A stretch of DNA of 64,000 nucleotides from an uncultured delta proteobacterium (GCA_963702565.1 CAVPDE010000011.1:40918-104917), one strand, 5' to 3'; positions 45,860 through 63,912 are shown, numbered from the stretch's first letter. Notes: generated by a model from the sequence alone, not told the origin. Numbers and translations are program-made.

Positions 45860-46276
45860 TCATGAATCTTTATTGAATTTTGTTTTTTCCCCAAAGGGTT
45901 TCTTAGAATCCATCGGCTTCAGTCGATCATGGAATTCGGCCGTGTTCGAACCGGGCATCAGGTATTTTGAATGGGCCAGTGTTCCATCCAGGTAGGCGTT
46001 CAGCACCGCTTCCGGCTGACCTGAAATGCCCTGGATGAGCTCGATTCCGGAAGCTTTCAGCAAATCGGAGAAATGGCGGGTCACTGCGCCGCAGATCAGC
46101 GTATCGACGCAGAGATCCTGAATTCTCAGACACCGCTGGGACAAGTCCCTCTCATCCAAATAGATCTCGAAGCGGGACGTCGGGCTCTTTTCATTCAACT
46201 CAACGACCATGAGCCTCGATGCCGTGTCCAAGACGGGCGACACTTTGTTTTCCCAGACCGGTATGGCTATTTTCAT
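45860..46276 (-). CDS. NifX/NifB-C-terminal-like domain protein (second copy)
   Basis: MKIAIPVWENKVSPVLD... and ICGAV. Its stop abuts the Mrp start. Confidence 0.7.
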   Translation of the reverse strand: MKIAIPVWENKVSPVLDTASRLMVVELNEKSPTSRFEIYLDERDLSQRCLRIQDLCVDTLICGAVTRHFSDLLKASGIELIQGISGQPEAVLNAYLDGTLAHSKYLMPGSNTAEFHDRLKPMDSKKPFGEKTKFNKDS

Positions 46277-46324
46277 TGGAAAGCACCCCTTGAGTTTCTT
46301 TTCCTGGCTTTGCCCTCTCTATAC

Positions 46325-46681
46325 CTAGTGGCCTTCCACGTTTGCTTCCGTGGCTTCACCGTATTTCCCGTTCATGAAGGCGGCTATGGCATCACCGATT
46401 TTGCCTTTCACACCTACAACGACCTTGACCCCTGCGGCCTTAAGCACTCTAAAGGCCTTGGGGCCGCAGTTTCCCGTGAGGACCACATCGGGCTTGTGAA
46501 CCAGGACATTTTGAGCCGACTGGATTCCTGCACCCTGGGCGAGGTCCAAGCTTTGACTGTTCGCGGCCACATCGAAGCTCATGGTTTCGGTATCCACGAC
46601 AAGAAACTTGGGCGCCCTTCCAAGCCTGGGATCGATCTGAGCATTCAGATCATCGCCCTCGGTGGTGACTGCAATTTTCAT
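46325..46681 (-). CDS. NifX/NifB-C-terminal-like domain protein (third copy)
   Basis: MKIAVTTEGDDLNAQIDPRLGRAPKFLVVD and VVLTGNCGPKAF. The start was moved to ATG 46681. Confidence 0.75.
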   Translation of the reverse strand: MKIAVTTEGDDLNAQIDPRLGRAPKFLVVDTETMSFDVAANSQSLDLAQGAGIQSAQNVLVHKPDVVLTGNCGPKAFRVLKAAGVKVVVGVKGKIGDAIAAFMNGKYGEATEANVEGH

Positions 46682-46750
46682 CTCTCTTGTCTGTCCTCCT
46701 TTGACCATACTCGCGCGCATTCCACTTGCACCATCGCTATCCTTTGCTAG

Positions 46751-46766
46751 AGCACCTTTCGTGCCA
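46751..46766 (-). promoter_or_regulatory. Sigma-54 (-24/-12) promoter candidate TGGCACG-AAAG-GTGCT
   Basis: The minus strand reads CTGGCACGAAAGGTGCTC, with GG and GC at the canonical 10-nt spacing, about 70 nt upstream of ATG 46681. Confidence 0.7.
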
Positions 46767-46952: not shown

Positions 46953-48299
46953 TCATGACAGAACCTGTTTTTCGGGAGGCTCGATGTGGAGGCGTTTCAT
47001 TTTGCGCCACAGGGTCGTCGGGTGGATGCCCATCTCCGCAGCCGTTGCGGCTCTGTTCCACTGATTGCGCTTGAGGACCTCTCGAATGTAACTACTTTCC
47101 ATCTCACCCAAGGAGGACGGCCTGGTTTCCGGGGGTCGGTTCATCCTGCTCTCCTCCGAGTTCCTGAAGAAATCCGGGAGGTGTTCAATACCGATCGTTC
47201 CGTTCTTGCAAACGACCGTGGCGTACTCGATGATGTTTTCCAGCTCCCGGACGTTTCCTGGAAAATCATGGGACATGAGGATGGGGAATGCTTCGGGGGA
47301 GAGGCCCTGGATCTCCTTGCCGCTCAGACGGCAGAATTTCCGTATGAAGTGTTCCACCAGGATGGGGATGTCTTCTCTCCTGTCGCGCAGAGGAGGAAGA
47401 ACGAGCTTGACCACGTTGATGCGATAGTAGAGGTCCTGTCTGAACTTTCCTTCTTCCACCAGGCTCTGGAGGTTTTTGTTTGTAGCGGCAACGATCCGGA
47501 CATCCGTTTTCAGAAACTTCGTGCTTCCAAGGGGCTCATAGGTCTTATCCTGAAGCACTCGAAGGAGGCGAACCTGCAGGGCAGGAGAAATGTCTCCGAT
47601 TTCATCGAGAAAGAGGGTCCCTCCATTGGCCACGGCTAGCCGACCGGGCTTGTCTTTGAAGGCCGTGCTGTGGGCGCCTTTTTCGTAGCCAAAGAGCTCC
47701 GATTCCAAAAGGGTGTCAGGCAGAGACCCGCAGTTGATCGTGATTAGAGGCCCTGTCTTCCTCGGGCTCAGCGCGTGAATCGCCTTGGCGAACAGCTCCT
47801 TGCCCGTGCCGCTTTCGCCCTCCAACAGAATCGTGGCGTCGCTTTCTGAAATCTGCTCCAGGATCCCGAAAAGCCTGCGCATTTCTTTGTTCTTGCTGAT
47901 GATGTCCTGGAAAGAGTGACGCTTTGTAAGCTCTTTGCGAAGTTCTTCGACCACGCTCAAGTCTCGAAAGGTTTCCACCCCCCCGATGACGGAATCCTGT
48001 TCATCTCTTAGCAGGGCCGTGGAAATGCTGACAGGGACTCGTTCTCCGTGAAGGTTGACGATGTAAATGGATTGATTCAGAACGGGGTGGCCTGTAGCCA
48101 TGGTGTGTTTCAGAGAGCAGCGATTTTCGCAAATACTGGCTCTGAACACTTCCCAGCATTGACGGCCGATGGCTTCTTCTTTCTTAATCCCTGTAATTTT
48201 TTCTGCAGAGCGGTTGAAAGAAGTGATCTTCAAATTCGAGTCCACCGTAAAAACGCCATCTGCGATGCTGTCGAGGATGATCTGCGTCCGGTTTTCCAC
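46953..48299 (-). CDS. PAS-domain sigma-54-dependent (NtrC/Fis-family) transcriptional activator with an atypical GAFTGA loop
   Basis: It has a PAS domain (SFNRSAEKITG) carrying CWEVFRASICENRCS, an AAA+ domain (GESGTGKE, RIVAATN, R-finger RREDI) and a C-terminal Fis-type HTH (AAAEMGIHPTTLWRKMK). The GAFTGA position reads GAHSTA. Confidence 0.85.
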   Translation of the reverse strand: MENRTQIILDSIADGVFTVDSNLKITSFNRSAEKITGIKKEEAIGRQCWEVFRASICENRCSLKHTMATGHPVLNQSIYIVNLHGERVPVSISTALLRDEQDSVIGGVETFRDLSVVEELRKELTKRHSFQDIISKNKEMRRLFGILEQISESDATILLEGESGTGKELFAKAIHALSPRKTGPLITINCGSLPDTLLESELFGYEKGAHSTAFKDKPGRLAVANGGTLFLDEIGDISPALQVRLLRVLQDKTYEPLGSTKFLKTDVRIVAATNKNLQSLVEEGKFRQDLYYRINVVKLVLPPLRDRREDIPILVEHFIRKFCRLSGKEIQGLSPEAFPILMSHDFPGNVRELENIIEYATVVCKNGTIGIEHLPDFFRNSEESRMNRPPETRPSSLGEMESSYIREVLKRNQWNRAATAAEMGIHPTTLWRKMKRLHIEPPEKQVLS

Positions 48300-48318: not shown

Positions 48319-49626
48319 CTATTCTCCCTCATCATCTTCTTCGTCAAAGACGATCTCGTCCCTCTCGTATTGGGCATCCCGCAGGGCATGGGCTTTTTCC
48401 ACTTCCTCTTCGCTCCAGGGCTCCACAATGAGCGAATCAGCCACTAGCTCCCACAAGTACTTGGTCTCAATGTCCAAGCCGAATTCTTTGGTCAGGCCTT
48501 TCATGATCTGGTCACGGCAATTGTGGCAGGGGGTAATGACCAACTTTGCTCCTGTGTCCCTGATCTGTTGCGCCTTAACCCTTCCGTAGTAAATTCTTTC
48601 GTCCGAGTAAGGCATGGCCCATGCGCCGCCGCCGGCGCCGCAGCAGTAGTTGTTCATCCGGTTGGGGTACATTTCCACATAATGCTCGCAGCACTGCTGG
48701 GTGATCCACCGGGGCTCTTCAAAGTAGCCATGGCCGAAAGCCTTCTGGCCTTTCCTTCCGTAATTGCACGGGTCATGCACGGTCGTGAGTTCTTCGTGGA
48801 TGGTTTTGTCCAGTTTGATTCTTCCCGTCTCGATGTATTCTTTCAGGAGATCGTGGACCGATACGACCTTGTATTTCTTGAAAACTTCGGGAAACCAGTT
48901 TTGCAGACCAAGCCTGGTCGCGTAGTAAGCGTGCCCTCACTCGGGCAAAAGGAGCGTCTTACACTCCAGCCTCTCCATGTGCTCGACGATACGACCCACG
49001 AGCGTCTTCATGGACTCATCATCTCCTGAGAAGAGCCCCCAATTGACTCCTTCCCAGTTGTACGAAGGTACGGTCCAGTCCTCCTTGGCCGCATAAAAGA
49101 TGCGCCACCAGAACTTCATGTCATCCGGCTCCCCAAAGGGTTCTTTGGAGTTGATTGTGACGAGGACGTTGGCTCCCTTTTTATCCACAGGCACATAGAA
49201 CCCAGGGAAACCATCCGCTTCGAGCTCTTTACCGAGGTCAGCGAGGAGGAAGAGAAAATCCGGTTTGGGAATGCCGAGGTTGTTCCCTCTTTGAAGGTCC
49301 ATGACCACGCCCTTGTGGATGGGGCCCGGGACCTTGTCTCTTTCGCGAAGGGTTCTGGCTCTTCGCATCATCTTGAGGATTTCCACTCCCTGAGGGCACG
49401 CGTATTCGCAACGGCCGCAGAGGGTGCAGATCCAGGGGAACCTCGAATCAATGAGTTCCTGGTCTAATCCCAGCGCAGCCATGCGGACAGCCTTTCTGGG
49501 GTCCATGTTGTCAACGCCTGTGACTGGGCAACCGCTCGCGCAGGTGCCGCAGGTGAAACAGACATCCGCCCACTCAGGGGACACTCTCAGTTTGCTCTCT
49601 TTTCGGTTAATGACCAAAGGTTCCAT
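48319..49626 (-). CDS. HdrD/GlpC-like Fe-S oxidoreductase (2x[4Fe-4S] + CCG domain), selenocysteine-containing (in-frame TGA 48937-48939)
   Basis: Track ORFs 48937-49626 and 48319-48780 are in the same frame and are separated only by a TGA plus 52 open codons. The read-through sequence is ...LLLPE-U-GHAYYATRLG...DPCNYG...NYCCGAGGG...PCHNC (C-x40-CC-x37-C-x2-C). The hairpin GACCA-GGCT-TGGTC lies 18 nt after the TGA. Confidence 0.75.
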
Positions 49627-49723: not shown

Positions 49724-50113
49724 TCAACGGCTCAGGAATTCCTTGATCTTCGCGAGAAGTTTTTCTTTGTCCACGGGTTTGTCAAAAAAAGCGTCAGGGC
49801 TGAAGTACTCCTGGTCTCTCTCTTTTTCATATCGGACCCCCAATTCGTCCGCCATGCCCGAAATCCCGATGATTGGCGTCTTCTTGAGATCCGGGTCTGT
49901 TTTGATCCGCTTGCACACTTCAAAGCCCGAATACAGGGTCTCCATCATCACGTCGAGCAGAATGAGGTCCGGATGCTCTTTTTGAGCCAATTCCACGCCC
50001 TTTTTCCCGTCTTGTGCCGTCAGCGTGCCGAACCCATTTCGTTTCAAGAACGTTTCAGTGGTGAAAAGGTAATCGGGGTTGTCATCGATGATCAATATCT
50101 TCTTGGATCCCAT
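49724..50113 (-). CDS. Stand-alone response-regulator receiver protein
   Basis: KKILIIDDNPD, ILLDVMM and PIIGISGM (CheY-like fold signature). Confidence 0.9.
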   Translation of the reverse strand: MGSKKILIIDDNPDYLFTTETFLKRNGFGTLTAQDGKKGVELAQKEHPDLILLDVMMETLYSGFEVCKRIKTDPDLKKTPIIGISGMADELGVRYEKERDQEYFSPDAFFDKPVDKEKLLAKIKEFLSR

Positions 50114-50152: not shown

Positions 50153-50995
50153 CTAATATTCGGGAGGCATTTGTTTAAGTTGAGCCAGTGAGAAAACAGG
50201 TCCATCCTTGCACACATACTGGTCTCCGATGTTGCAGCGACCGCAAATGCCGATGCCGCACTTCATACGCATTTCCAGAGAGAGAATGATCCTGTCCGGG
50301 GGAAACCCCAGTTTCTCCAGCACCGGTTGAGTGAACTTGATCATGATCGGAGGTCCGCACACAATGGCTATGGCATTGTCTGCGCTCTTGATTTTCTGCT
50401 CCGTAATCGTGGGCACAAATCCGGTGTTGTATTTCCAGCTCGGATCGTTCGTGCTGTCCACGGTGATGTGCATGTGAATATCGTCCCTCCGCTCCCAAGC
50501 GGCGAGTTCCTCCTTGTAAAGGAGCATTCCCGGGCTTCGGGCTCCGTACACCACCGTGATGTCCTTGAATCGCGACCGGTTGTCCGGATGAAGCATGTAG
50601 ACAATGCTGGAGCGAAGGGTGGTGAAAGCGAAACCGCCGCCGACGATGACCACATTCTTTCCCTCCATCTCCTCCCAGGGGTACCAGTTTCCCAGAGGGC
50701 CGCGGATCCCCATCACTTCGCCCTCTTTCATGTTGTGAAGGTAGGTGGTCACCTGGCCGACCTTGTTCACCGTAAAGGTGACAAATCCTTTTTCCGTAGG
50801 GGAAGAGGCGATGCCGATCGGGATCTCTCCTTTCCCTGCTATGGAGAGCTCTGCAAACTGACCCGGAGTATAGGCGAACTTCCTTTCGTCCTCAGGATCA
50901 AGGAAAACGAACCTGAAAGTCTTCAGGTTTTTGTCTTCGGTCTCCGTGACGATCTTGTCGATTCGGACCGGGTAAGGAAGATAGGGATTTTGCAT
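50153..50995 (-). CDS. FAD/NAD(P)-binding oxidoreductase with C-terminal [2Fe-2S] (AsrB / sulfhydrogenase-gamma / FlxA-like)
   Basis: PGQFAELS, GEIPIGIAS, GPLGNWY, VVIVGGGFAF, and C-terminal RMKCGIGICGRCNIG...VCKDGPVF. The start was moved to ATG 50995, since upstream codons translate a repeat. Confidence 0.8.
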   Translation of the reverse strand: MQNPYLPYPVRIDKIVTETEDKNLKTFRFVFLDPEDERKFAYTPGQFAELSIAGKGEIPIGIASSPTEKGFVTFTVNKVGQVTTYLHNMKEGEVMGIRGPLGNWYPWEEMEGKNVVIVGGGFAFTTLRSSIVYMLHPDNRSRFKDITVVYGARSPGMLLYKEELAAWERRDDIHMHITVDSTNDPSWKYNTGFVPTITEQKIKSADNAIAIVCGPPIMIKFTQPVLEKLGFPPDRIILSLEMRMKCGIGICGRCNIGDQYVCKDGPVFSLAQLKQMPPEY

Positions 50996-51018
50996 CAGAC
51001 TCACACTCCTTCTCCAAG

Positions 51019-51104
51019 TTGGAGTAATGGAGTACTGGAGTAGTGGAGTGTTGGGAATCGCAGTTCTGTTCACTCCATTACTCCATTACTCCATCATTCC
51101 ATCC
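51019..51104. repeat. TGGAGTNN / NNACTCCA-type inverted arrays (8-nt period)
   Basis: TTGGAGTA ATGGAGTA CTGGAGTA GTGGAGTG TTGGG, a centre, then CACT CCATTACT CCATTACT CCATCATT CCATCC. Confidence 0.85.
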
Positions 51105-51107
51105 TTA

Positions 51108-52142
51108 TTATCCGTTCATCAATTCAAATACTTTTCGAATATCGATGTTGACGGGGCAGAACTGGACACATCGCCCGCACCCGACGCATGCTGGCCCGTT
51201 CCCGTACTTGTCCACGTAATACTTCAGCTTGTGCATAAACCGCTGCCTGACCCTCTGAAGCTTCTTGTCCCGGGGATTGTGGCCGGACCCATGAAGGGTG
51301 AAGAGCGGGAACATGCAGGCATCCCAATTCCGGATCCTGTCCCCTTCTTTTCCTGACACTTCGTCCTGGATGTCAAAGCACCAGCAGGTGGGACAGAGAA
51401 ATGTGCAGGTTCCGCAGTTGATGCACGCAAAAGAGACTCTCTCCCAGAAAGGGGCGTTGAAAAGCTCATTGACCGCTTTCTCCCGGAGGTGATCCACGTG
51501 CACCCTGGAGGAGTTTTTTTTCTCCGCTGCTTTTGGAAGGCTTAGCGCCTTCTTGAAGAGGGAGTCGGCTGCCTCTGAACCCAGCTCGACCTTTTCCAGG
51601 AAAGCCTCGCCTTTGGGCGTGAGGCTTCTCACCAGGAAGCGGTCGCCCAGGTCGACCATGAGCGCATCCAGACCTTTCTCGCTGAAGGGGCCGCTTCCCA
51701 CAGAGGTGCAGAAGCAGGAGGCGCAAGGGTCGTTGCATCCGAAGCCGACAAGGGTGGTGGTTTCCATGCGGCGGACCCACCACGGGTCCTGGAACTGAGG
51801 ATTGTCGAAATTGATCCTCACCAACTCAAAGGCAAAAGCGTCGCAAGGCCTTATTCCCACGATCACCTGGGGAGAAAAGTCCTTCGGTGCCTCCTTGACG
51901 ACGTGCGCGTCCCCTTTGCTCTCGTCCAGAGTGTACTCGAACATCCGCTCTGACTGCGGAAGCATAACCGATTTCGGGGAAAGCCTGGTGTTCTGGAATT
52001 CAAAATTGGGTTTGCGGCCTGTTTCCAGAAGCCTGAAGTTGTGGAAGTCCCCCTCCTTCACAGGGACATACACTTTGTAAACGCCTTGCAGCCTTTGTAG
52101 TGCCTCAGTCCATTGTTCCTTGCTGAATGATTTTTTAAGCAT
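51108..52142 (-). CDS. 4Fe-4S dicluster protein (AsrA / sulfhydrogenase-beta / FlxB-like)
   Basis: CINCGTCTFLCPTCWCFD and CVGCGRCVQFCP. 344 aa, paired with the AsrB-like subunit. Confidence 0.75.
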   Translation of the reverse strand: MLKKSFSKEQWTEALQRLQGVYKVYVPVKEGDFHNFRLLETGRKPNFEFQNTRLSPKSVMLPQSERMFEYTLDESKGDAHVVKEAPKDFSPQVIVGIRPCDAFAFELVRINFDNPQFQDPWWVRRMETTTLVGFGCNDPCASCFCTSVGSGPFSEKGLDALMVDLGDRFLVRSLTPKGEAFLEKVELGSEAADSLFKKALSLPKAAEKKNSSRVHVDHLREKAVNELFNAPFWERVSFACINCGTCTFLCPTCWCFDIQDEVSGKEGDRIRNWDACMFPLFTLHGSGHNPRDKKLQRVRQRFMHKLKYYVDKYGNGPACVGCGRCVQFCPVNIDIRKVFELMNG

Positions 52143-52154
52143 AGCATGAATCCT

Positions 52155-52264
52155 TAGGAGTATTGAATGCTGGAGTAATGGAGTACTGGAGCGCTGGAGT
52201 AATGGTGGAATAAAGAAAAAGAGGATACCCAGTACTCCAAGACTCCATCACACCATCACTCCAT
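52155..52264. repeat. TGGAGTNN / NNACTCCA-type inverted arrays (third copy)
   Basis: TAGGAGTA TTGAATG CTGGAGTA ATGGAGTA CTGGAGCG CTGGAGTA ATGGTGGA, a centre, then CCCAGTACT CCAAGACT CCATCACA CCATCACT CCAT. Confidence 0.85.
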
Positions 52265-53215
52265 TTATTTGACAAACTCGTTATAGTCGTCCACTCGATA
52301 AACATCCAGAGGCGGCCGCTGATCCATGCGGGTCCCTGCCTCCCAGCCGAAGAGCTCAAAAGCATCCTTGTTCAGCTTCTTGGTGAACTGCCTCATGGAG
52401 ATCCCCACGGGGCAAACCCTCTCACAAGCACCGCAGTCCGTGCACCTCCCGGCACAATGATAAGCCCGCAAAAAATGAAAGGTCATGGTATCCACGGGAT
52501 CCGTGCTTTTCCCTACCCACTGGGGCCGCGACTCATCGACGAAGCAAGTGGGGCAGTAGCAGAGCGGGCAAACGTTTCGGCATGCGTAGCACCGTAGGCA
52601 GGATGAAATAAGCTGGGTGAAAAACTTCCGCTTTTCTTCGGGGCTCTTCTTTTCCAACACCTCAATGTCTTTGAAGGGGTTGACGCCCTCCTGTTCAGGA
52701 ACCGGGTCAGCGACCATCTCGTCGTATTCGACGGGATTTCGATGAAGGCAAGTGGCGCAATTGGTCCTCAAGAAATCCTTTTTCTTAAAGGTCTCCTGAA
52801 AACCGTTTCCGCTCACCGTGAAGGAGTCATTGGTTTCAGTGACATCGAGAATCTCCTTGTTCCCCATCGTTCTCTTCACCGCTCGGTGGTCGATCATGCC
52901 GGTGCAGGGAAGGCCCACGATGTAGAGCTGTTCCCGCTTAATCTGGTTTTCGATGATGTGGGTCACGATGTTCCTGGAATTGCATCCATTGGCGACAATC
53001 CCGACGCGGTCGGTCCGCTTGGTCAGGTAATTGCAGAGGTTCAGACCGCAGTGGCTGTCCCAGTGAAGCAAGTCGACCTCCGCAGGATTCTTGACCAGCA
53101 CTGGTTCATTCATCATGGGCACTGAGCCCTTCCGGTAGCCGATGAAAACGTCGACCGTTCCCTTTTCCAGGAGCTTTCGAGCGATGTCTCTGATTTTCTG
53201 GGTATACTCAAGCAT
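52265..53215 (-). CDS. Fe-S cluster-binding oxidoreductase subunit (FlxC-like)
   Basis: CLRCYACRNVCPLCYCPTC and CTDCGACERVCP. The ATG at 53213-53215 overlaps the mvhD stop (TGATG). Confidence 0.65.
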   Translation of the reverse strand: MLEYTQKIRDIARKLLEKGTVDVFIGYRKGSVPMMNEPVLVKNPAEVDLLHWDSHCGLNLCNYLTKRTDRVGIVANGCNSRNIVTHIIENQIKREQLYIVGLPCTGMIDHRAVKRTMGNKEILDVTETNDSFTVSGNGFQETFKKKDFLRTNCATCLHRNPVEYDEMVADPVPEQEGVNPFKDIEVLEKKSPEEKRKFFTQLISSCLRCYACRNVCPLCYCPTCFVDESRPQWVGKSTDPVDTMTFHFLRAYHCAGRCTDCGACERVCPVGISMRQFTKKLNKDAFELFGWEAGTRMDQRPPLDVYRVDDYNEFVK

Positions 53216-53658
53216 CAAACCACCTCAGCTCTTCTCTTAACAAGATAAGTTGCCTGACCGGTCTCCTTGACCGCCTTGATGACTTCGGTGGCAACCTCCA
53301 CGAACTTGGTTGCTTCGGCAGAGGAAATCCACGAAAAGTGCAGTCTTCCCGGTTCCAGCCCCACATGCTCGATCAGATTCTTGAACAGTGCGAACTTGCG
53401 TCTTGCGAAGTAATTACCTTCCAGGTAATGGCAGTCGCCGGGGTGTCAGCCGGAAACCCAAACACCGTCGGCGCCGTGTCGGAACGCGGCGAGGATGAAT
53501 TTGGGGCTCACCCGGGCAGAGCAGGGCACCCGGATAACCCGGATATTGGACGGGTACTGGAAGCGGCTGACCCCTGCCAGGTCTGCCGCTCCGTAGCTGC
53601 ACCAGTTGCACAAGAATGCGGTTATCTTAGGCTGCCAGTCGTTCATAGCTCTCTCCAA
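53215..53658 (-). CDS. mvhD: MvhD/FlxD-like [2Fe-2S] electron-transfer subunit, selenocysteine-containing (in-frame TGA 53446-53448)
   Basis: Track ORF 53446-53658 ends ...[12 protein letters not shown]. The same frame stays open for 76 more codons: [51 protein letters not shown]...; G-U-HPGDCHY is the Cys/Sec position of MvhD. The hairpin ATTACC-TGGAA-GGTAAT lies about 20 nt after the TGA. Confidence 0.8.
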
Positions 53659-53813: not shown

Positions 53814-56800
53814 TTACATTTCGTTAATCATCGCCATGATCTGCCCTTCCTCGAATCCCTTGAGGTTGAGCGCTCCTGAGCGGCAGGAAGCCACGCAAAG
53901 ACCGCAGCCTTTGCAGAGCACCGGGTTGACCTCCGCCTTACCCGCGAAAGGCCCCTTCTGAATAAAAGAGGGCGCCGAGTAGGGGCAAATCTCCACACAG
54001 ACCCCGCAGCTGCTGCAGACGGCAGGGGTCGTGTAGGCGACCATGCCGCTCACAGAGATAGTCTTTCTGGCCAGCAGAGTGACCGCTCTGGAGGCGGCTG
54101 CCTGGGCGTGGGCCACCGACTCATCGATGGGCTTTGGATAGTGCGCCATACCGCAAAGGAAGACCCCGTCCGTGGCAAACTGGGATGGGCCCAGCTTGGC
54201 GTGAGCCTCCACAAAGAACCCGTCCTCGCTCACGGGGACCTTGAAGAACTGGGCAAGCTTTTCGTCCTTGTAGGGAACGATGGCCGAGGCCAGGGCAACC
54301 AAACCCGCCTTGATCAGGATGGGCCGCTGGAGCACATGATCCATCACCTCGATCTCAAGTCCCTCTGTACCGGCGGAGACTTTCGGTTTCTGAGAAACAG
54401 AGAACCGGATGAAGAGAATCCCCGCTTCTCGCGCCTTCCTGTAAAGGAGTTCCCGCTCGCCGTAGGTTCGGATGTCCCGGTTGAGAATGTAAACATCCAT
54501 GGCTGGGTTCAGCTCTTTGAGGTGGAGGGCGCTTTCAATGGAGTGGGTGCAGCAGACTCTCGAACAATAGGGTCTTTGCGGTTCGCGCGAGCCCACGCAC
54601 TGGATGAACACGGCGGTTTGAACCTTCTTGAGCGATGGGTCGTGATCGATGAATCTGCGGTCCAACTCCTGGTGAGTCACCACCAGGGGATTTTTCCCAT
54701 AAAGGTACTCCTCGGGCTTGTACTCACAGCATCCCGTGGCCAGCACGGCGATTCCGTGGTCAATGGTTCCCTGGAGGGTACTGGACTGAAACGTGGACTT
54801 GAAGTTTCCGACGAACCCTTCGACCTGGGTCAGCTCGGCTCCGAGGTGGACGCGGATGTTTTTGTCACCCTGGACCGACTGCACAAGGTCCCCCAGGTTT
54901 TTCTGGATATCTTCTCCCTGCCACGTCCTGTAAAGGTTTAGGGCCTGACCGCCGAGCACGCGGGATTTTTCGATGATGTCCACCTCATAGCCCTGGTCGC
55001 TCAAGGTCTTTGCCGCCACCATCCCGGAGATGCCGCCACCGACCACGAGCGCCCGCTGGTTGATATCCAGGACAGCCTCAGGGAGGGATTCCATGAGAGC
55101 CACCTTGGCCACGGCCATGCGCACGAGGTCTTTGGCTTTGTTCGTGGCCTCCTGAGGATTGTCTTTGTGGACCCAGGAGTCCTGGTTGCGGATGTTGGTC
55201 ATCTCGAAGAGGTACTTGTTCAGCCCGGCGTTGACAAGGGTTTCCTGAAAGAGAGGCTCGTGGGTCTTGGGCGTGCAGGCCGCCACCACGATCCGGTTGA
55301 GGGCGTTCGCCCTGATCACCTGGGCCATGGTGTCCTGAGTGTCCTGCGAGCAGGAGTAGAGGTTGTCCGCTACGTACTCGACGTAGGGAAGCTTCTTCGC
55401 ATAGTCGCGCACAGCCGGTACATCCACCACGCCGCCGATGTTGATGCCGCAATTGCAGACAAAGACGCCGATGCGAGGCCGCTCCCCCCGAATGTCTATC
55501 TGCTCGGGCACCTCTTTCGCTTTGGTCAGCGTATTGCGCGCGCTACTCAAAAGGCCTCCTGCTTGGGCAGCCGCCGAACTCGCTTCGATCACGGACTGGG
55601 GAATGTCCTTGGGTCCCTGGAAAGCCCCGCACACGTAAATGCCTTCCCTGGAGGTAGCCACTGGAGCAAAAGAACCGGTGCGGCAGAATTGCGATTCGGT
55701 GAGGTCGATGTCGAGCTTGTCGGCCAATTCCACGACCTCCGGCGAGGTCTCCATCCCTACGGAAAGGACGACCATGTCAAAAGCCTCTTGGCGCAATTCA
55801 CCGTTTTCAGTGGCATACTTGACGCTGAGATCTTCGGACTGCGAGACGGCCTCCACGGAGTGAACGCGGGACCGGATGAAGCGAACGCCGTGTTTTTCCC
55901 GGGCCGCGTCATAGTACCTTTCGAACTCCTTTCCGTGGGTCCTCATGTCCATGTAGAAGATGGCGCAATCGAGATCAGATCCTGAATGCTCCTTGGCGAT
56001 GACCGCCTCTTTGATGGCATACATGCAACAGACGGAAGAACAATAGGGATGGTCACACTGATGCATGTCCCTGGACCCGACGCACTGGAGCCACGCGATT
56101 TTCTTGGGCTCCTTGTGATCGGACATGCGGGCGAGATGCCCCAGGGTAGGACCGGACGCTGAAAGGATCCTCTCGAACTCCATGGAGGTGACCACGTTCG
56201 GAAGCTTGGAGTAGCTGTAAGTATCGTACTTGGAGGGGTCAAAGGGCTGAAAGCCCGGTGCAAGGATGATGGCCCCTACTTGTACCGTCGTCCTTTTTTC
56301 CTGGTCATCAAATTTGATAGCTCCTGAGGAACAGAATTTCTCGCAAGCTTTGCACTTACCTTTTTCGAAGAAAATGCAGTTATCTTTGTCGATGGCATAT
56401 TTCAGAGGCACGGCCTGGGCGTAAGGGACATAAATGGCTTTCCGCTTGATCAAGCCTTCATTGTAATCGTCTTCAACCTTTTTGGGACATTTCTCAGCGC
56501 AGGTACCGCAACCAATACACTTCTCAGGGTCCACGTATCGCGGATGCTGCAGAATGTCCACTTGTAGATTTCCGGGCTCTCCCCTGACATTTAGAACTTC
56601 TGAAAGCGTAAGCAATTCGATGTTTAGGTGCCGGCCGACCTCGACCAGTTTGGGGGAGATAATTCACATCGCACAATCATTAGTGGGAAACGTCTTATCC
56701 AGTTGGGCCATGACCCCGCCTACAGACGGGGACTTCTCAACGAGGTAGACGTGGTAGCCGGAATCTGCCAGGTCAAGCGAGGCTTGCATCCCTGCAATAC

Positions 56801-56846
56801 CACCGCCGACGACCATTACTGATCCTGTGGGTTTATGGGACATCAT
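53814..56846 (-). CDS. hdrA: Large HdrA-like flavoprotein (HdrL-type, two FAD/NAD dinucleotide-binding regions), selenocysteine-containing (in-frame TGA 56664-56666)
   Basis: Track ORFs 56664-56846 and 53814-56615 are in the same frame. The read-through sequence is VVGGGIAGMQASL...KTFPTNDCAM-U-IISPKLVEVGRHLNIELLTLSEV, the known Cys/Sec site of HdrA. There is a second GGGISGMVAA motif mid-protein, several CxxCxxCxxxCP ferredoxin motifs, and about 1010 aa in total. Confidence 0.85.
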
Positions 56847-56891
56847 TCTGCTCCTTGAAATTGTTTGAGACGCGGAGGGCTCAGCTTGTGA

Positions 56892-56920
56892 AACATAGTT
56901 CTGAGGCGGAGAGTTGTCAA
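56892..56920 (-). promoter_or_regulatory. Sigma-70-like promoter candidate for the hdrA operon (TTGACA, 17 nt, TATGTT)
   Basis: On the minus strand: TTGACA (56915-56920), a 17-nt spacer, then TATGTT (56892-56897). AAGGAG lies 5 nt upstream of the ATG at 56846. Confidence 0.5.
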
Positions 56921-57120
56921 CCGAAATATCCGTGAAACTACCTGAAAAACTTAAGGATTCATACTCATAGGGTAGTAATCAGGATATCATCCGAGCCGTC
57001 TGGAATTAAGTCTCTTCCAAATGTTTGATGATGATAGAAAGGCCAAATCATCGAGAAGGCATTCCGGGATTGGTCGTGCGATGAGGGCTGGAATTCGGGT
57101 TAAGAAAAAGGCAAGAGGCT

Positions 57121-58188
57121 CTAAGATTGCGGAAGAGGTAATATGATTCTGAACGTGCTTCCCTTGCCGGGGCTGCTGAGGACCTCGATTCTGCCGTCGT
57201 GCTCCTTCACGATTTCATGAACCACCATGAGCCCGAGGCCGGTGCCGTCGGTTCCCTTTGTGGAGAAGAAGTGGGTGAAGATTTTCTCACAGGTGGTGTC
57301 GTCCATCCCAATCCCGTCATCGACCACCTCCAACATGAGATGGCGACGGTCATAGAAATCGGCTTTCAAAGTGACGGCGTGAGAGTCTTTTCCTTTGTCC
57401 CTGCGGCACGCTTCCAGCGCATTGGAAAGTAGGTTGATCAACATCCGGCGCATGGCCCCGGGATCCATATGAACCACAGGAAGGCGTGGGTTGGAGTTTG
57501 CTCTCAGTTTGCACTCGATGGACTGAGCTTTTTCGTAAAAAAACGCAATGGACTCCATGAGCATTTTATCAAGGACAACTGCTTCATAGACCGGCTTTCT
57601 TTTCTTGGTGGAATAAAGGATATTCTGGACCAGGCCGGAAATCTCCTGGATGTTTTTCTTGACCACAGACCATCCTTTCTTCATCAGTTCCTGATCTTGG
57701 TCCTTCAGCGCTTCATCCACCACATAGGCGCCCCCCTGGAGACCCTCCAAAATGTTCTTGATATCATGGGAAAGGATCGCCACAGACTGGCCGAGGAGAG
57801 TGAGTCCCTTCTGGGCCTCTTTCACTTTGCTGATGTTGGACGACAGCTCCAGAACAGCGACTACATTGCCCAGGGCATCCGTAATGGGGGAAGAGTAAAT
57901 CACCACGTGGACGGGTTCCCTTCCGCCCAGATGCACGACCTCTTCGCTTACGTGGGCCTTCTTGTCCTGAAAGGTTTCCCAGACCGGGCAGGAAGAGCAA
58001 CGGACGGAACTCCTTAAATAGACTTCATGGCACTTCTTGCCGATTGCCTCGCCGAAGTCATTCCGAAAGGTCTGGTTGGTTTGCAGGATGGTGAAAGATC
58101 GGTCTTGAATGGAGACATAGCATGGGAGCAGATCGACAATCGCCTTGTACCCAAGGTCAAGGAGTGTGGGATGGCTATTCTCGCCCAT
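57121..58188 (-). CDS. Cytoplasmic sensor histidine kinase with a Cys-rich PAS domain
   Basis: PAS domain with PCY...C-x10-C-x2-CP, HisKA (LSHDIKN) and HATPase_c (DDGIGM, FFSTK, GTGLGL). Confidence 0.9.
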   Translation of the reverse strand: MGENSHPTLLDLGYKAIVDLLPCYVSIQDRSFTILQTNQTFRNDFGEAIGKKCHEVYLRSSVRCSSCPVWETFQDKKAHVSEEVVHLGGREPVHVVIYSSPITDALGNVVAVLELSSNISKVKEAQKGLTLLGQSVAILSHDIKNILEGLQGGAYVVDEALKDQDQELMKKGWSVVKKNIQEISGLVQNILYSTKKRKPVYEAVVLDKMLMESIAFFYEKAQSIECKLRANSNPRLPVVHMDPGAMRRMLINLLSNALEACRRDKGKDSHAVTLKADFYDRRHLMLEVVDDGIGMDDTTCEKIFTHFFSTKGTDGTGLGLMVVHEIVKEHDGRIEVLSSPGKGSTFRIILPLPQS

Positions 58189-58235
58189 TGTCCAGCAGTC
58201 TCCAGAAGGTGTAAACGAGGAAAACTTGTCCTGCG

Positions 58236-58628
58236 CTATTTCAAGGCGTTCCGTATTGCTTCCAGGATCTCATCAGGCTCAGGCGGTTTCTCGATGTAGG
58301 CCGCGGGCTCGGGGATTTTCTCCCCCTTGTATTCATCCAGCACTTTCTGGGAGTGGAAAAAGGTTTTCTTGGAGAGCGCCGAGAGCATGATCACAGGAAT
58401 CCCCTTCAGTTCAGGGTCGTTCCTTAACTCGCGATAGAGGTTGATCCCGCTCTCTTTGGGCATCATGATGTCCAGGATAATGAGAGCCGGCCTGCTCTTG
58501 CGGGCCACTTCCAGCCCCTGGAAACCGTCTTGAGCCGTGAGAGGCTTAAAGCCGTTGGTTTCCAGCAGGGTGGTGATGAAGGTTCTCATGTCCAATTCAT
58601 CATCAACGACAAGGACTTTCTTCGCCAT
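58236..58628 (-). CDS. Stand-alone response-regulator receiver protein
   Basis: KKVLVVDDELD, IILDIMMP and PVIMLSA. Confidence 0.9.
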   Translation of the reverse strand: MAKKVLVVDDELDMRTFITTLLETNGFKPLTAQDGFQGLEVARKSRPALIILDIMMPKESGINLYRELRNDPELKGIPVIMLSALSKKTFFHSQKVLDEYKGEKIPEPAAYIEKPPEPDEILEAIRNALK

Positions 58629-58693
58629 CTTTAGACTCCTTCCAAAATGGGGTCAGATTATCTCTCTGCTCATTCGAACACCGAGGATGCCCC

Positions 58694-59197
58694 CTAGTAC
58701 ATGCTTCCAGGCAGAGTGAACTGTTTTGCCGGATTGCGGATCGCGATGACATGGCAATGGGCGTATTTGGAGACATTGCCCACCGTGCTTCCGTGAACCA
58801 TGCGATCCTGTTCAGCTTTGCCGAGGGCCCCCATGACGATCACATCAATGCCGTTTTTCTTCGCATAACGGATGATTTCCACATCGGGCGACCCGCTCTT
58901 GACAACGAACAAGTAGTTCTTGAAATCTCCGAGCTTCTTCTCGTACTCTTTCTTGAGCGCCTCTCTGGCCCGCTTCTCCACGTCTTCGTCATAGAAGGCC
59001 TCGCCGCCGGGAGCCCCTGAAGGAACATGTTCGTCAACCACATTCCTCAGATAGGAATAGGAGGAGTGGGGAACATGAAAGATGTGGAGCTTGGCGCCAT
59101 GCTTCTTCGCAAGGTCGAAGGCGTGCAGGAAAGCGATGTTGGCGTCCTCTGAAAAATCCGTGCAAAAAAGGATGTTTTTGTACTCTATCATAGTCAA
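58694..59197 (-). CDS. Universal stress protein (UspA family)
   Basis: ILFCTDFSE, and VIVMGALGK...GSTVGNV (an ATP-binding G-2x-G-9x-G(S/T) type motif). Confidence 0.85.
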   Translation of the reverse strand: MTMIEYKNILFCTDFSEDANIAFLHAFDLAKKHGAKLHIFHVPHSSYSYLRNVVDEHVPSGAPGGEAFYDEDVEKRAREALKKEYEKKLGDFKNYLFVVKSGSPDVEIIRYAKKNGIDVIVMGALGKAEQDRMVHGSTVGNVSKYAHCHVIAIRNPAKQFTLPGSMY

Positions 59198-59220
59198 CCC
59201 CTCTCAGAAGTAATGATGTG

Positions 59221-60366
59221 TCATGCGGAGGGCTTCTTATCGGGAAGCCTCACCCTGAAGACCGTCCCCTTCCCTTTTTCGGACGAGACGTCAATGACCC
59301 CTCCGTGCTCATCAACGATTTTCTTGGCGATCATCAAGCCAAGGCCCGTGCCCCTCGAACCCTTTGTGCTGAAAAAAGTCTGAAAAATTTTCTTTCTCGT
59401 CTCTTCATCCATGCCGCAGCCATTGTCCGTCACCTGGTATTCCACGGCCCACCCCTCGGGCTTTAACGTCCGGAGGGACACCTCGCATGTTTTTGAAGCG
59501 CAGGAAATGTCCGTGCATGCATCAATCGCGTTGGTCACCAGATTGAGGAGAACCCGGTGAATCCCTTCGCGGTCAAACCACGCGTGTGCTAAACCCTGAT
59601 CCGGTGCGATCTTTAACGCAACACCCGTCTCTGAGGCACGGGAAAGCATTAGATCATAAACCTCCTTGGCAGGTCCATTCGGATCGCAGAGTTGCACCTC
59701 AGGCTCCCTCTCCTTGGCGTAGTTCAGGAGATCCACCGCCATGCCTTTGATCTTTTGAACGTTCCCCTTGATCATTTGCCAGCCCTGGCTGAGATAGGTC
59801 CTGTTCTCCAGATCAATGCCTTTTTCAAGGACGTACATCCCACCCGTCAGACCGGCGGTGATATTCTTGATGGCGTGGGCCAACCCTGCCACGGTCTGGC
59901 CCACAGCCGCAAACCTTTCCGCTTCCACAAGCTTCCGGCTCTTTTCTTCAACCAGCGTCTCCAGGTTTTCCGTGTACTCCCTGAGCCTCTTTTTGTATGA
60001 AAGCTTCTCCAGTGCCCTTCGAAGGGCAATGTCGAGCGTTTCATCGTGGATGGGCTTTGTGATGAAATCAGACGCATCGTACTTGAGACTCTGTATGGCA
60101 AGCTCCATTTCGCCGTGTCCTGTGATCATGATGACTTCGGTGTTGGGGCTTTCTGCCTTAATGCGCTTGAGCAGTTCGATCCCATCCATCCCGGGCATCT
60201 TAATGTCGGTGAGAATGACCTCGGGACCCGCTTCATGGAAAACCCGAAGCGCCTCTTCACCGTTTTCAGCGGTCAGCACCCGGTAGCCCCGGTCGGCCAG
60301 AGAGATGCCCAGGACTTTGAGAATGCCCGGTTCATCATCCACAAGGAGCAATTGCTTTTCCATCAA
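59221..60366 (-). CDS. Hybrid response regulator-histidine kinase (REC + HisKA + HATPase_c)
   Basis: LLLVDDEPG and ILTDIKMPGMDG, then GLAHAIKN, then DNGCGM, FFSTK and GTGLGL. Confidence 0.9.
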   Translation of the reverse strand: MMEKQLLLVDDEPGILKVLGISLADRGYRVLTAENGEEALRVFHEAGPEVILTDIKMPGMDGIELLKRIKAESPNTEVIMITGHGEMELAIQSLKYDASDFITKPIHDETLDIALRRALEKLSYKKRLREYTENLETLVEEKSRKLVEAERFAAVGQTVAGLAHAIKNITAGLTGGMYVLEKGIDLENRTYLSQGWQMIKGNVQKIKGMAVDLLNYAKEREPEVQLCDPNGPAKEVYDLMLSRASETGVALKIAPDQGLAHAWFDREGIHRVLLNLVTNAIDACTDISCASKTCEVSLRTLKPEGWAVEYQVTDNGCGMDEETRKKIFQTFFSTKGSRGTGLGLMIAKKIVDEHGGVIDVSSEKGKGTVFRVRLPDKKPSA

Positions 60367-61850
60367 GCCTCGTGAATCCGGGGAAACCTGATGATAAAGG
60401 TCGCCCCTTCCCCTTCCTTGCTTTCCACCTTGATCGTGCCGTCATAATCCTGCACAATGCCGTAACTGATGGAGAGACCGAGCCCTGTCCCCTTGCCCAC
60501 CTTCTTGGTCGTGAAGAAAGGTTCGAATATCCTGTCGAGAAGGGGTTCAGGGATTCCGATGCCGGTATCGGTCACTTCAATGGCGACCATCTCATCTTCA
60601 ACCTTTGTTTTCAAGATGATCCGTTTCACTTCTTCCTTCGGGGCTCTTTGCTCCCCTTTCTTCTCGATGGCGTCTCTGGCATTGATCAGGAGGTTGACGA
60701 AAACCTGCTCCAGCCGGTTGGGATCAGCCAGAACCGCGGGAACATTCTCATCAAGGTCCTCCACGACCTCGATTTCCCGCAACTTCAGTTGCTGCTTGAA
60801 AAAGTCAACCGCCCGTCTCAGGACGTTGTTGACCTGGACCTTCTCCTTTGCCACGTCTGATTTCCGGCCGAACTCCCTCATGTGGCCGATGATTTTGGAT
60901 GCCCTGTCCACGTGGGTGTCAATCTCTTCGGCCATGGTCCTGAGAATGTCTGTCCTCATCGGCTCCCCGTTGTCGGCCTTTCTTCGCAAGAAGCTGCTTG
61001 CCGTCTTAATGACCGAGAGGGGCTGATTCAACTCGTGGGCAACGCCCGTGGCCATCTCTCCCAGGGTGGCCATTTTGCTCGCCTGGATCAAGTGCTGCTC
61101 GGCCATCAAACGCACCGTGATGTCGCTGGCGGTCACAAGAAGAACCTTCCAGCCGTTGAATTCAGAGGAAGAAATGTGAATGCTGACATAGATGACCTTC
61201 CCGTCCTTGCGTACCTGTCTTGCCCGGTCGATGATGTTGGTGGTTTTGAGACTGACCTCATAGCTCTTCCGATCGTTGCCCTCGAATAGATCAAGGAAGG
61301 AGGTCATATAAATCTCCTCTTTGGAGAACCCATACACGGCTGCAACGCTTTCATTGCAGTCGAGGACCTTGAGGTTCTGCGCGTTCAAAACAAAGACCGG
61401 GTTCGGGATCGTGTTGAAAATGATCCGGTATTTCTCTTCTGATTTTCTTGCCTCCCTTTCGAGGGACTTCATCTGCGTCAGATCGAGGCTCATTTCCATT
61501 GCCGCGATCACCTCCCCTTTATCGTTCTTGAGGGGGGAGGTCTTCACCAGCCAGTAGGTCTCGGTGCCCTCCTTGGTCACGGCCTGTTCTTCGCTCACAT
61601 GGGGTCGTCCGTCTTCAAAGGTCTTGAGGACAGGGCAGTTAGGGCATTTTTCGGAACGGCCTTTGTAAGCCTTGAAGCAGAAATCCCCCGGTTCTGGTGA
61701 GAACATCTTTTCGAACTCCCGGTTGTATCTCAGGAGCTTCAGATCCCGATCCTGGACCGTGATGTAGCAGGGAGACTCCTCAAAGAGGGTCTGGTATTCG
61801 TTCTGGTGGCGATTGGATGATTCTTGTTTAGCCTTGATCAAAGGGTCCAT
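60363..61850 (-). CDS. Sensor histidine kinase with two PAS domains, the first Cys-rich
   Basis: PAS1 with PCY...C-x11-C-x2-CP (paralogous to 57121-58188), then PAS2, HisKA (GVAHELNQP) and HATPase_c (DTGIGI, FFTTK, GTGLGL). Confidence 0.9.
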
Positions 61851-61916: not shown

Positions 61917-63200
61917 TTACTCCTCTTCTTCGTCCTCCTTGGGGAGCATATGTTCCGGGATCACCATGTGTTCGGAAATCACTTCCTTGAAGTGGACGGC
62001 CTTGATGTCGAGCTTGTGCTCCTTGGCCAGGTCCCGGATCTGGTCGATGCAGTTGTGGCAGGGGACGAGAACCAACTTGGCGCCTGTTTCGCGGATCTGG
62101 TCGGCTTTGACTTTCCCCGAGGCCAGGCGATACTTCTTCATTTCGCCGCCCATGGGCATGGCACCGCCGCCGCCGCCGCAGCAATAGTTGTAGTTGCCCT
62201 GGTATTTCATAGGGCGAAAATCCTCGGAGACCAGTTCAGCCAAATGCCGGTTCTTTTCTGCAAGCCCTCCGCTCCGGATGACATTGCAGGGGTCCTGAAC
62301 CGTTGTGGGCACTTTGATCTTCTCTTTGAGCTTGATCCGGCCGTCCCGGAGGTAGTCGTGAAAGAGCTCCACGGAGTGAATCACTTCCTGTTTCGGCTCG
62401 TATCCCAACCAAATGGGCGCTTCGTACCGAAGCGCTCGATAGGCGTGGCCTCACTCGGTTACGGCGACTTGTTTCACCTCCAGTTCCTCGGCTCGCTTGA
62501 AGGTGTTCTCCACGATCATGCGGGCGGTAGGCGCATCATTGATGAACATGGCCAGGTTCGTGTCGTCCCATCCCTTCTCGCTCGGGACCGTCCAGTCCTC
62601 ACCGGCCACCGCGAAAATCTTGGCCACCTCCATGATGTCCTGGGGATAGAACTTGGGCTCCCTGGCGTTGACCGTGTACATGATCTTGGCCCCCTTCTTG
62701 TCGATGGGGATCTTGAGACCTACCACTTCAGCCGCAGCTTCCTCCTCGCACCACTGGATGGTTTCGACCCAGTCCTCCTTGGACACGGCCATCTGGTTGC
62801 CGGTCAGCTTGTAGTTTTCAACGGCTTTCTTGAGACCTTCGGGAGCGATTCCCAGAGAGGTCAGCAGGCCCCTCAGGGTGGAGATGAGGAAGCCGATATC
62901 AATGCCAAAGGGGCAGTAAAGCGTGCAGCGCCTGCACATGTTGCACTCGTAGTAAATGGTCTTGTAAATCTCTTGGAGATACGCCTTGTCCACCCGGCCT
63001 TTTTTCTTGAGCAGGTCTCTCAAAAATCTCACTTTGTAGGCGGGGATCATTTTGGGATCTTTCCCGCTCGCCAGATAGAAGTGGCAGGTGTCGGCGCACA
63101 TGCTGCAGTGGGTGCAGGTTTCGATCCACGTCTTCAAACGGGCACCCAATCGGGGTTTGAGGAAATCCATGATCGCTTTCGGGTTCACGTCTTCAGTCAT
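61917..63200 (-). CDS. DsrK/HdrD-like Fe-S oxidoreductase (2x[4Fe-4S] + CCG domain), selenocysteine-containing (in-frame TGA 62451-62453)
   Basis: Track ORFs 62451-63200 and 61917-62408 are in the same frame. The read-through sequence is ...QVAVTE-U-GHAYRALRYE...DPCNV...NYCCGGGGG...PCHNC. The hairpin GCGCTTCG-GTA-CGAAGCGC starts 15 nt after the TGA. AAAGGAG lies upstream of ATG 63200. Confidence 0.8.
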
Positions 63201-63246: not shown

Positions 63247-63912
63247 CTATATTGAGTATCCTCTTCTTCCGAATTCGATGCCGCTGGCTGCCCGGGAGAA
63301 GAAGAAAAGCACGGAGTGGGAGAGTCTTGTAAAAGGGATCAGGATGAGCATGAGCTCTGCGGAGAGAACATGAAAGAGCCTCATGTTGTCACCGAGAAAC
63401 TTGATGCTGTCCACGGTCCCGTGAGTGAGGAAATAGCCGGTCAGGAAAGGGAGGACCGTCACCACGATGAGGAGGTAATCGCCAGCCGTGGTAAGGAGGC
63501 GGAGATCGGGCAAGAGTGCCCTTCTCAGGATGAAAAAAATGGCGATCGCAAGAAGGAGCAGCGTCATCCAGTCCGCCCATTTATCGGGGATAGAGGACCA
63601 GGACCACCCGAAACGCGATTCTTCCCAAAGGGAGACATGGCCTGCCAGCCAAATGGGCACCACAATGAGGCAGATGTGAAAAAGGTAGACACAGATAATG
63701 AAAACAGGGTTTTTTTTCACTGTCACATTGAGAGGCAGCAGCCACCGGGCCAAGGTGGCGAGAATGTATTTCACGCTGAAATAATTGTAGAGGGGCTTAT
63801 CCTTTGTCCGGGCGACAAAGATGAATTGGGCCATGCGGATCAGTGTTCCCATGATGAAGACAAGAAAGGCGATCCACAATAGGGGTCCTTCTGCGAACGA
63901 GCTCAAGTCCAT
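63247..63912 (-). CDS. NarI-family membrane cytochrome b-like subunit (DsrM/HdrE/HmeC-like)
   Basis: 221 aa with five or six TM helices and conserved His in TM2/TM5 positions (FHICLIV, FHVLSAE). It lies immediately upstream of the DsrK-like gene. Confidence 0.65.
   Translation of the reverse strand: MDLSSFAEGPLLWIAFLVFIMGTLIRMAQFIFVARTKDKPLYNYFSVKYILATLARWLLPLNVTVKKNPVFIICVYLFHICLIVVPIWLAGHVSLWEESRFGWSWSSIPDKWADWMTLLLLAIAIFFILRRALLPDLRLLTTAGDYLLIVVTVLPFLTGYFLTHGTVDSIKFLGDNMRLFHVLSAELMLILIPFTRLSHSVLFFFSRAASGIEFGRRGYSI

Follow-up and report, generated by a model that had tools for sequence, protein, structure and literature searches.

What do two cysteine-rich PAS kinases sense when their genes are wedged between two redox modules, and where does their signal go? 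The question is raised by a locus in a 64,000-nt stretch of DNA from an uncultured delta proteobacterium (hereafter the window), of which we analysed the part from 44 to 64 kb by open reading frame (ORF) calls and Pfam domains. Every gene in this part lies on the minus strand. An island of five genes separates a TmcC/HdrD-like (DsrMK-like) pair from an HdrL-MvhD-Flx operon; they encode in order a PAS-PAS kinase (HK1), a hybrid of receiver (REC) and kinase domains, a universal stress protein (Usp), a stand-alone receiver (REC2) and a second PAS kinase (HK5). A sequence-only reading had described this layout, with which the ORFs, their Pfam domains and the flanking modules agree, and had singled out four cysteines shared by the first PAS domains of the two kinases. 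We find that the four-cysteine pattern is not a product of chance. By analogy with characterised PAS domains we read it as an iron-sulphur (Fe-S) redox sensor, probably with a [4Fe-4S] cluster, and give this reading about an even chance.

At their N-termini HK1 and HK5 have PAS domains that are 29% identical over 132 aa (E = 1e-21), and the cysteines of these domains (C28, C58, C69 and C72 in HK1; C23, C53, C64 and C67 in HK5) share the arrangement C-x29-C-x10-C-x2-C. The four common cysteines were therefore correctly recognised at the outset, but the spacer then given as x10/11 is x10 in both kinases. Because neither sequence has an N-terminal hydrophobic segment, the PAS domain beginning almost immediately, HK1 and HK5 are probably soluble cytoplasmic sensors. 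An ortholog scan with one genome per species returned 16 HK1 loci at 50–88% identity, all in Thermodesulfobacteriota, and all four cysteines are present in 16/16. HK5-like partners carry them in 10 of 12 cases, with Gly at the first position in the other 2. The 16 genomes are metagenome-assembled genomes or isolates named Desulfobacteraceae, Desulfatiglandales, Desulfococcaceae, Desulfosalsimonas or other Thermodesulfobacteriota, and the names of all ortholog-bearing genomes are those of sulfate-reducer lineages. Metagenome loci (n = 80, 59–99% identity) yielded 94 high-scoring domains, every one of which has cysteine at all four positions; the search pattern included the first cysteine, and the remaining three lay outside it. 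Loss of the cysteines in orthologs had been named as an observation that would overturn the sensor proposal; since they are conserved, that objection does not apply.

Both domains score as PAS domains (PAS_4, 51.9 bits for HK1 and 35.6 bits for HK5, cutoff 23.1), and an AlphaFold2 model of the Cys-PAS domain from a 47-sequence alignment has a canonical PAS fold (pLDDT 95.5, pTM 0.87). This alignment was used instead of one of 8 sequences, which gave a poor model in the Cys region (pLDDT 69). The first cysteine of the model lies shortly before strand A-beta (model residues 15–19), the second opens a short helix (44–47, E-alpha), and the CxxC is found in the loop immediately ahead of helix 59–66, at the N-terminus of F-alpha. 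Foldseek matched generic LOV, NifL, VqmA and DosP PAS domains at 12–20% identity, with TM-scores mostly between 0.7 and 0.8 (0.60–0.83 among the 50 matches listed). LOV structures match by fold alone (13–20% identity), and a LOV-type flavin site was rejected: the LOV motif is GXNCRFLQ with flavin-contacting Arg, Gln and Asn, whereas the kinases have G-x-x-C-[YFH]-x-x-Y-K, without Arg after the Cys. A c-type heme was rejected as well, as there is no CxxCH and Pro comes after the last Cys. No solved structure carrying the Cys motif was found by PDB profile search or Foldseek, and NCBIfam and Pfam hold no model specific to the domain.

A HMMER search with an 8-sequence profile against 1.84 billion cluster representatives gave 36,482 matches at E ≤ 1e-3, 8,874 at ≤ 1e-10 and 453 at ≤ 1e-30; by profile similarity, the Cys-PAS domain of HK1 and HK5 is part of a large, uncharacterised PAS family. 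Motifs were counted in the best 150 proteins, which contain 333 full-length domain matches. The triad C-x10-C-x2-C is present in 264 of these domains, with a spacing of exactly x10/x2 in 252, and the fourth cysteine, a "PC" before A-beta, accompanies about half of the triads (132 domains). The first cysteine almost never occurs without the triad (two domains among the patterns listed). Members with three cysteines have Asp (53), or else Tyr, Phe or Glu, in its column; Asp as a fourth ligand was considered and rejected, since Asp at this position is the general PAS consensus. In the four-Cys subfamily the motif is followed by a conserved His (78%) and a conserved Glu, and in 79% of family members Pro comes after the last Cys. 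Tandem Cys-PAS domains are common, with a three-Cys copy followed by a four-Cys copy, or the four-Cys type twice, and a maximum of six copies per protein. A histidine kinase is the recognisable output in 72 of 149 family proteins. We suspect that many of those without a recognisable output are contig-end fragments. The surroundings of one family member (P0178), on a frameshift-rich metagenome contig, were uninformative. Should the C-x10-C-x2-C PAS bind a cluster, a cofactor and a class of signal could be predicted for thousands of "PAS domain S-box" kinases that are now unannotated (8,874 representatives at E ≤ 1e-10).

Fe-S clusters in PAS sensors are not new in themselves; in the literature we searched, on CX10CX2C variants and on Cys-rich or Fe-S PAS kinases, two types emerged, NreB and OrpR, and nothing beyond them. 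The closest tested precedent for the kinase Cys-PAS is OrpR, not NreB. OrpR (DVU2106) of Desulfovibrio vulgaris Hildenborough is a sigma-54 activator of PAS-AAA+-HTH (helix-turn-helix) architecture, in which a PAS triad (C52/C61/C65, with D/E54) binds a redox-sensitive [4Fe-4S] cluster and mutation of the triad abolishes redox control (PMC8359166). In alignments (MAFFT; hhalign, 97% probability), C58, C69 and C72 of HK1 share their columns with the three cysteines of the OrpR type, and the column of the kinases' fourth Cys is Asp in the OrpR-type activator of the window. Both domains are cytoplasmic PAS domains, of an anaerobic sulfate reducer in the case of OrpR and of a sulfate-reducer-like bacterium in that of the kinases, and their three common Cys columns run from E-alpha as far as the beginning of F-alpha. 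In contrast, the spacing is C-x8-C-x3-C in OrpR and C-x10-C-x2-C in the kinases, which add a fourth Cys before A-beta, and the output is an AAA+ activator in the former and a histidine kinase in HK1 and HK5. Spacing and output thus place HK1 and HK5 outside the OrpR type, and their Cys-PAS may work like that of OrpR without family membership.

NreB is the precedent to which the sequence-only reading had appealed. The protein of Staphylococcus carnosus is an oxygen/sulfide sensor kinase with the motif CX2CX11CX2C and a [4Fe-4S] cluster, that of Bacillus licheniformis has CX2CX11C and [2Fe-2S], and in NreB the core is HisKA_3 (DesK-type) and the Fe-S ligands precede a short F-alpha helix (PMC13478379). 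HK1 and HK5 resemble it as soluble kinases with an N-terminal PAS and a ligand segment before F-alpha, and their x10/x2 spacing is close to the x11/x2 of the last three S. carnosus cysteines. The first ligand of NreB, however, lies in an upstream CxxC and not in a "PC" before A-beta, and the core of HK1 and HK5 is HisKA PF00512, with no HisKA_3 by Pfam. No LuxR-type (NreC) regulator, GAF-type NreA, nitrate or sqr-pdo genes were seen in 43.8–64 kb of the window, and no specific sequence relationship with NreB emerged, the PDB profile search matching generic PAS only. Because motif, kinase core and partners differ, HK1 and HK5 are not members of the NreB family. Their cysteine-lined site lies in the part of the PAS fold where OrpR and NreB have theirs, and is a third variant of it. 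What is new is an uncharacterised and apparently very large PAS variant with a different motif, a kinase output and a linkage to Hdr-type modules in sulfate-reducer lineages.

If the site binds a cluster, its four ligands would be the cysteine before A-beta, that at the start of E-alpha and the CxxC at the F-alpha N-terminus, and HK1 and HK5 would change their autokinase activity when the cluster is oxidised, is lost or exchanges a ligand. Several points weigh against this. The Cys spacing of the kinases is unlike both experimentally characterised Fe-S PAS motifs; two to six tandem copies are frequent in the family and would fit a structural metal site too; redox-active dithiols have this geometry too, with a CxxC where a helix begins; the phosphotransfer partners are assigned by gene order and similarity alone; and restriction to anaerobes is a finding for the ortholog group only. 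A tblastn search against plasmids returned generic PAS matches only, at 25–32% identity, in aerobes, which speaks neither for nor against such a restriction. A structural Cys4 site for zinc or another non-redox metal, stabilising the E-alpha/F-alpha loop while some other ligand in the PAS pocket provides the signal, would suit the rigid spacing (252 of 264 triad domains) and the presence of up to six Cys-PAS copies in one protein, which is commoner for a structural motif than for a sensor cofactor, and the conserved His and Glu after the motif could bind that other ligand. We nevertheless regard it as rather unlikely. The position-equivalent triad of OrpR binds [4Fe-4S] and is required for redox control; half of the family has three cysteines, which is unusual for structural zinc but has precedents among Fe-S sites, where one position may be open or filled by a residue other than Cys; and the Pro after the last Cys appears to resemble the "CP" motifs of ferredoxins. 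The only zinc-binding PAS in the literature searched is that of WalK, the zinc ligands of which are His, Asp and Glu, with no Cys.

A metal-free thiol switch, with the F-alpha CxxC and possibly the other two cysteines cycling between dithiol and disulfide or forming a persulfide or polysulfide, seems to us improbable. Such a PAS would report the state of cytoplasmic thiols and disulfides, or of sulfane sulfur, on which the neighbouring CCG-domain (HdrD/DsrK-like) enzymes act. The CxxC directly before helix 59–66 of the model, a thioredoxin-like geometry, speaks for such a switch, and so does the conserved linkage to HdrD/TmcC-like and HdrL modules; the chemistry of Hdr/DsrK modules is disulfide or trisulfide reduction. 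Yet four invariant cysteines exceed the need of a dithiol switch, the triad is common to a PAS that binds Fe-S by experiment (OrpR), and both characterised Cys-rich PAS domains that we found, NreB and OrpR, bind clusters. ArcB and RegB are membrane-anchored, quinone-linked thiol-switch kinases with one or two cysteines and no metal. HK1 and HK5 are like them in that kinase cysteines would report the respiratory redox state; they are probably co-transcribed with a quinol-linked membrane module, but they are soluble and have four invariant cysteines. It is also conceivable, if quite doubtful, that the TmcC/HdrD-like module, quinol-linked and predicted to contain selenocysteine (Sec), is the input device of the PAS kinases and not their target, and would connect the menaquinone pool with the Cys or Fe-S site by electron transfer, or reduce a kinase disulfide or persulfide. 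If that were true, the respiratory chain would be read directly by a dedicated Hdr-type redox relay feeding a branched phosphorelay, and two-component signalling in anaerobes would be coupled to the redox state of the membrane in a new way.

Turning from the sensor to the signal, we examined how the kinases are organised with their potential partners. For HATPase_c all three kinases score over the cutoff, and their sequences show H-box histidines and N/G boxes; for HisKA, HK1 passes the cutoff and HK5 falls short of it (20.1 vs 26.9). By domain content, HK1, HK5 and the hybrid qualify as predicted histidine kinases. The start of the hybrid overlaps the stop of HK1. Intergenic gaps from the tmcC-like gene to HK5 are 23–66 bp or overlaps, and no convincing intrinsic terminator was seen between the genes of this block, so that tmcC-like through HK5 are likely to form one operon. 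None of the five island proteins (0/5, Pfam) has a DNA-binding domain, as had been noted before. The likely wiring, predicted from gene order and similarity, would have HK1 phosphorylate the AtoC-like receiver of the translationally coupled hybrid, and the hybrid and HK5 both act on REC2 and on its paralog REC3, a stand-alone receiver that sits within the Flx/Hdr operon, between the Flx-like genes and a second hdrD-like gene, 7 kb off the island. The kinase cores of the hybrid and HK5 are 33% identical over DHp and CA, and related cores together with paralogous receivers fit this arrangement. REC2 and REC3 would then act via protein–protein contact or through regulators encoded elsewhere; a MerR-type ORF or an OrpR-type activator adjoins the signalling genes in some relatives. 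The lack of a DNA-binding output recalls multi-kinase networks with single-domain receivers. Weak matches of the hybrid to LvrB of the Leptospira LvrA/LvrB hybrid system (125 bits, cutoff 500) and of REC2 to a DVU0259/DivK-like receiver (95 bits, cutoff 160) are likenesses of architecture only. The Usp sequence shows a G-x2-G-x9-GS ATP-binding-type motif, and its gene is conserved in the block.

An exit through the sigma-54 activator about 9 kb away had also been proposed. Our results argue against this route, and it is very unlikely that the kinases feed this activator and that it in turn controls the Hdr/Flx/DsrMK-like operons. The activator is on the same strand, and OrpR-type PAS activators lie inside the HK1 islands of two genomes (L004, L014) and near HK1 islands in several metagenome loci. 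It has no receiver domain, however, which makes it an unlikely output for the kinases, and it has a sensor PAS of its own with C48-x8-C57-x3-C61 and an acidic residue at C+2 (E50), the C-x8-C-x3-C motif that the sequence-only reading had recognised as related. It directly precedes two Nitro_FeMo-Co genes and a Mrp/NUBPL ATPase gene, the composition, we presume, of orp7-8-9 in the D. vulgaris orp locus. Before the first of these is a TGGCAC-N5-GTGC site, besides which the last 20 kb have no sigma-54-like site on the gene strand. The window-wide count of such sites is that expected by chance. No sigma-54-like site lies before hdrL, which a sigma-70-like promoter precedes; upstream of the tmcC-like gene the window holds 88 nt only, too short to judge. 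Based on motif, architecture, the orp-like operon and the sigma-54-like site, we read the activator as a putative OrpR ortholog serving the adjacent operon, the comparison being with the published description of OrpR. No divergent orp3-5-like operon was seen upstream of it, where the second HdrD-like gene lies instead. The likely role of this activator is thus corrected to that of an OrpR serving orp genes, and of the exits first suggested the stand-alone receivers are more plausible, including REC3, the counterpart of which follows HK5 elsewhere.

We then asked whether the association between the kinases and the redox modules is maintained across genomes. An HdrD-like gene, usually with a TmcC-like gene, is present in the HK1 locus of 10 of the 16 species genomes; of the six exceptions, three end within 1.7 kb upstream of HK1 and three have an HdrL-like gene. 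Metagenome loci gave similar patterns, with an HdrD-like gene in 40 of 57 informative loci and the REC-kinase hybrid immediately 3′ of HK1 in 47 of the 49 that are informative on this point. The TmcC-like gene is found upstream of HK1 orthologs too. Two loci (L011, L015) have the rearranged order HK1, REC-kinase, REC, TmcC, HdrD, Usp, Usp, REC. Linkage of HK1 to Hdr-type modules is therefore conserved and outlasts rearrangement. From this co-inheritance, and the probable co-transcription with a TmcC/HdrD-like, quinol-linked CCG module, we infer that the kinase system is either tuned to the thiol/disulfide energy metabolism of the Hdr type or in control of it. To our knowledge little is established about the regulation of Hdr/Flx/Tmc-type energy modules in sulfate reducers, and the block of tmcC-like, hdrD-like, HK1, REC-kinase, usp, REC, HK5 and REC genes is a candidate regulator of these modules that can be tested genetically.

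The far end of the block is less constant. HK5 orthologs are directly followed by a REC3-like receiver (59–72% identity) in six loci (L045, L048, L051, L054, L055, L084), and a MerR-type HTH ORF comes next in L048 and L051. One metagenome contig (L022) matches the window at 98–100% identity over the stretch between hdrD and HK5, both included; past HK5 it has, like L001, genes for a PAS kinase and a sigma-54 activator, and no hdrL there. The activator of L001 is of the NtrC type, with an N-terminal receiver. More distant relatives (L002, L026; 83–92%) have hdrL after HK5, like the window. Since L022 and L001 differ from the window past HK5, the 275-bp spacer between HK5 and HdrL (56847–57120) is a rearrangement breakpoint. 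It looks as if the HdrL-MvhD-Flx block had been inserted into an older signalling unit with REC3 at its end. Coordinates of all features are collected in Table 1.

Table 1. Features of the kinase island and its flanks, in order of transcription (window coordinates).
Feature	Coordinates	Strand	Basis or remark
TmcC/HmcE/DsrM-type membrane anchor; first gene of probable operon	63247..63912	minus	NCBIfam TmcC 211.8 bits (below cutoff, 240), HmcE 158.8 bits
HdrD/DsrK/TmcB-like Fe-S and CCG protein	61917..63200	minus	Fer4_8 and CCG domains, one per half; read-through translation
In-frame TGA, first HdrD-like gene	62451-62453	minus	Candidate selenocysteine, E-U-GHAY
G+C-rich hairpin	62417-62435		15 nt 3′ of TGA 62451-62453
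HK1, 495 aa: PAS_4, PAS_9, HisKA, HATPase_c	60363..61850	minus	Pfam
HK1 Cys-PAS	61458-61805	minus	Cys codons C28 61767-61769, C58 61677-61679, C69 61644-61646, C72 61635-61637
REC-kinase hybrid: N-terminal receiver, DHp, HATPase	59221..60366	minus	Pfam; receiver resembles AtoC/NtrC-type
Usp, universal stress protein	58694..59197	minus	Pfam Usp 1.3e-24
REC2, stand-alone receiver	58236..58628	minus	Pfam Response_reg; DD, D53, S83, K114 intact
HK5, 355 aa: PAS_4, HisKA, HATPase_c	57121..58188	minus	Pfam
HK5 Cys-PAS	57814-58152	minus	Cys codons C23 58120-58122, C53 58030-58032, C64 57997-57999, C67 57988-57990
HdrL/HdrA-like flavoprotein; true start ATG 56846	53814..56846	minus	
In-frame TGA, HdrL	56664-56666	minus	DCAM-U-IISPK
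MvhD-like gene	53215..53658	minus	
In-frame TGA, MvhD-like gene	53446-53448	minus	VSG-U-HPGDCHY
Three Flx-like Fe-S / FAD-NAD oxidoreductase genes (52265-53218, 51108-52142, 50153-51073)	50153..53218	minus	
REC3, stand-alone receiver, REC2 paralog	49724..50113	minus	36% identity to REC2
Second HdrD-like CCG protein	48319..49626	minus	
In-frame TGA, second HdrD-like gene	48937-48939	minus	E-U-GHAY
OrpR-type sigma-54 activator, PAS-AAA+-HTH	46953..48299	minus	Pfam; motif spacing as OrpR
Sigma-54 promoter-like site TGGCACGAAAGGTGCT	46751..46766	minus	31 nt 5′ of orp7-like start codon
orp7-8-9-like operon: two Nitro_FeMo-Co (orange-protein-type) genes and Mrp/NUBPL P-loop ATPase	44918..46720	minus	

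Four redox genes of the flanking modules contain an in-frame TGA at the site of a catalytic or cluster cysteine in relatives, and ORF callers split or truncate all four. The hairpin close to the TGA of the first HdrD-like gene resembles a bacterial selenocysteine insertion sequence (SECIS). HdrD-like, HdrL and MvhD types are selenoprotein families in Desulfobacterium autotrophicum (PMC2702500).

The sigma-54 activators within the HK1 islands of L004 (5157–6899) and L014 (11519–13225) have an OrpR-type C-x8-C-x3-C PAS, so that the two cysteine-PAS types repeatedly co-occur. In L013 (about 11477–11923), HK1 and the REC-kinase hybrid are directly followed by a site resembling a sigma-54 promoter, TGGCATCATTCATGCA, and by an orange-protein-like gene, an arrangement that hints at a link between the HK1/REC-kinase pair and orp genes. 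Upstream of the tmcC-like gene, L002 encodes a GAF-HD (HD-GYP-like) signalling protein and an ADP-ribosylglycohydrolase (5580–6821); the matching region lies past the end of the window. At the other side of the locus, a protein with a TrmO-type tRNA methyltransferase N-terminal domain (43879–44382) and a small unannotated ORF (44401–44871) are encoded downstream of the orp-like operon.

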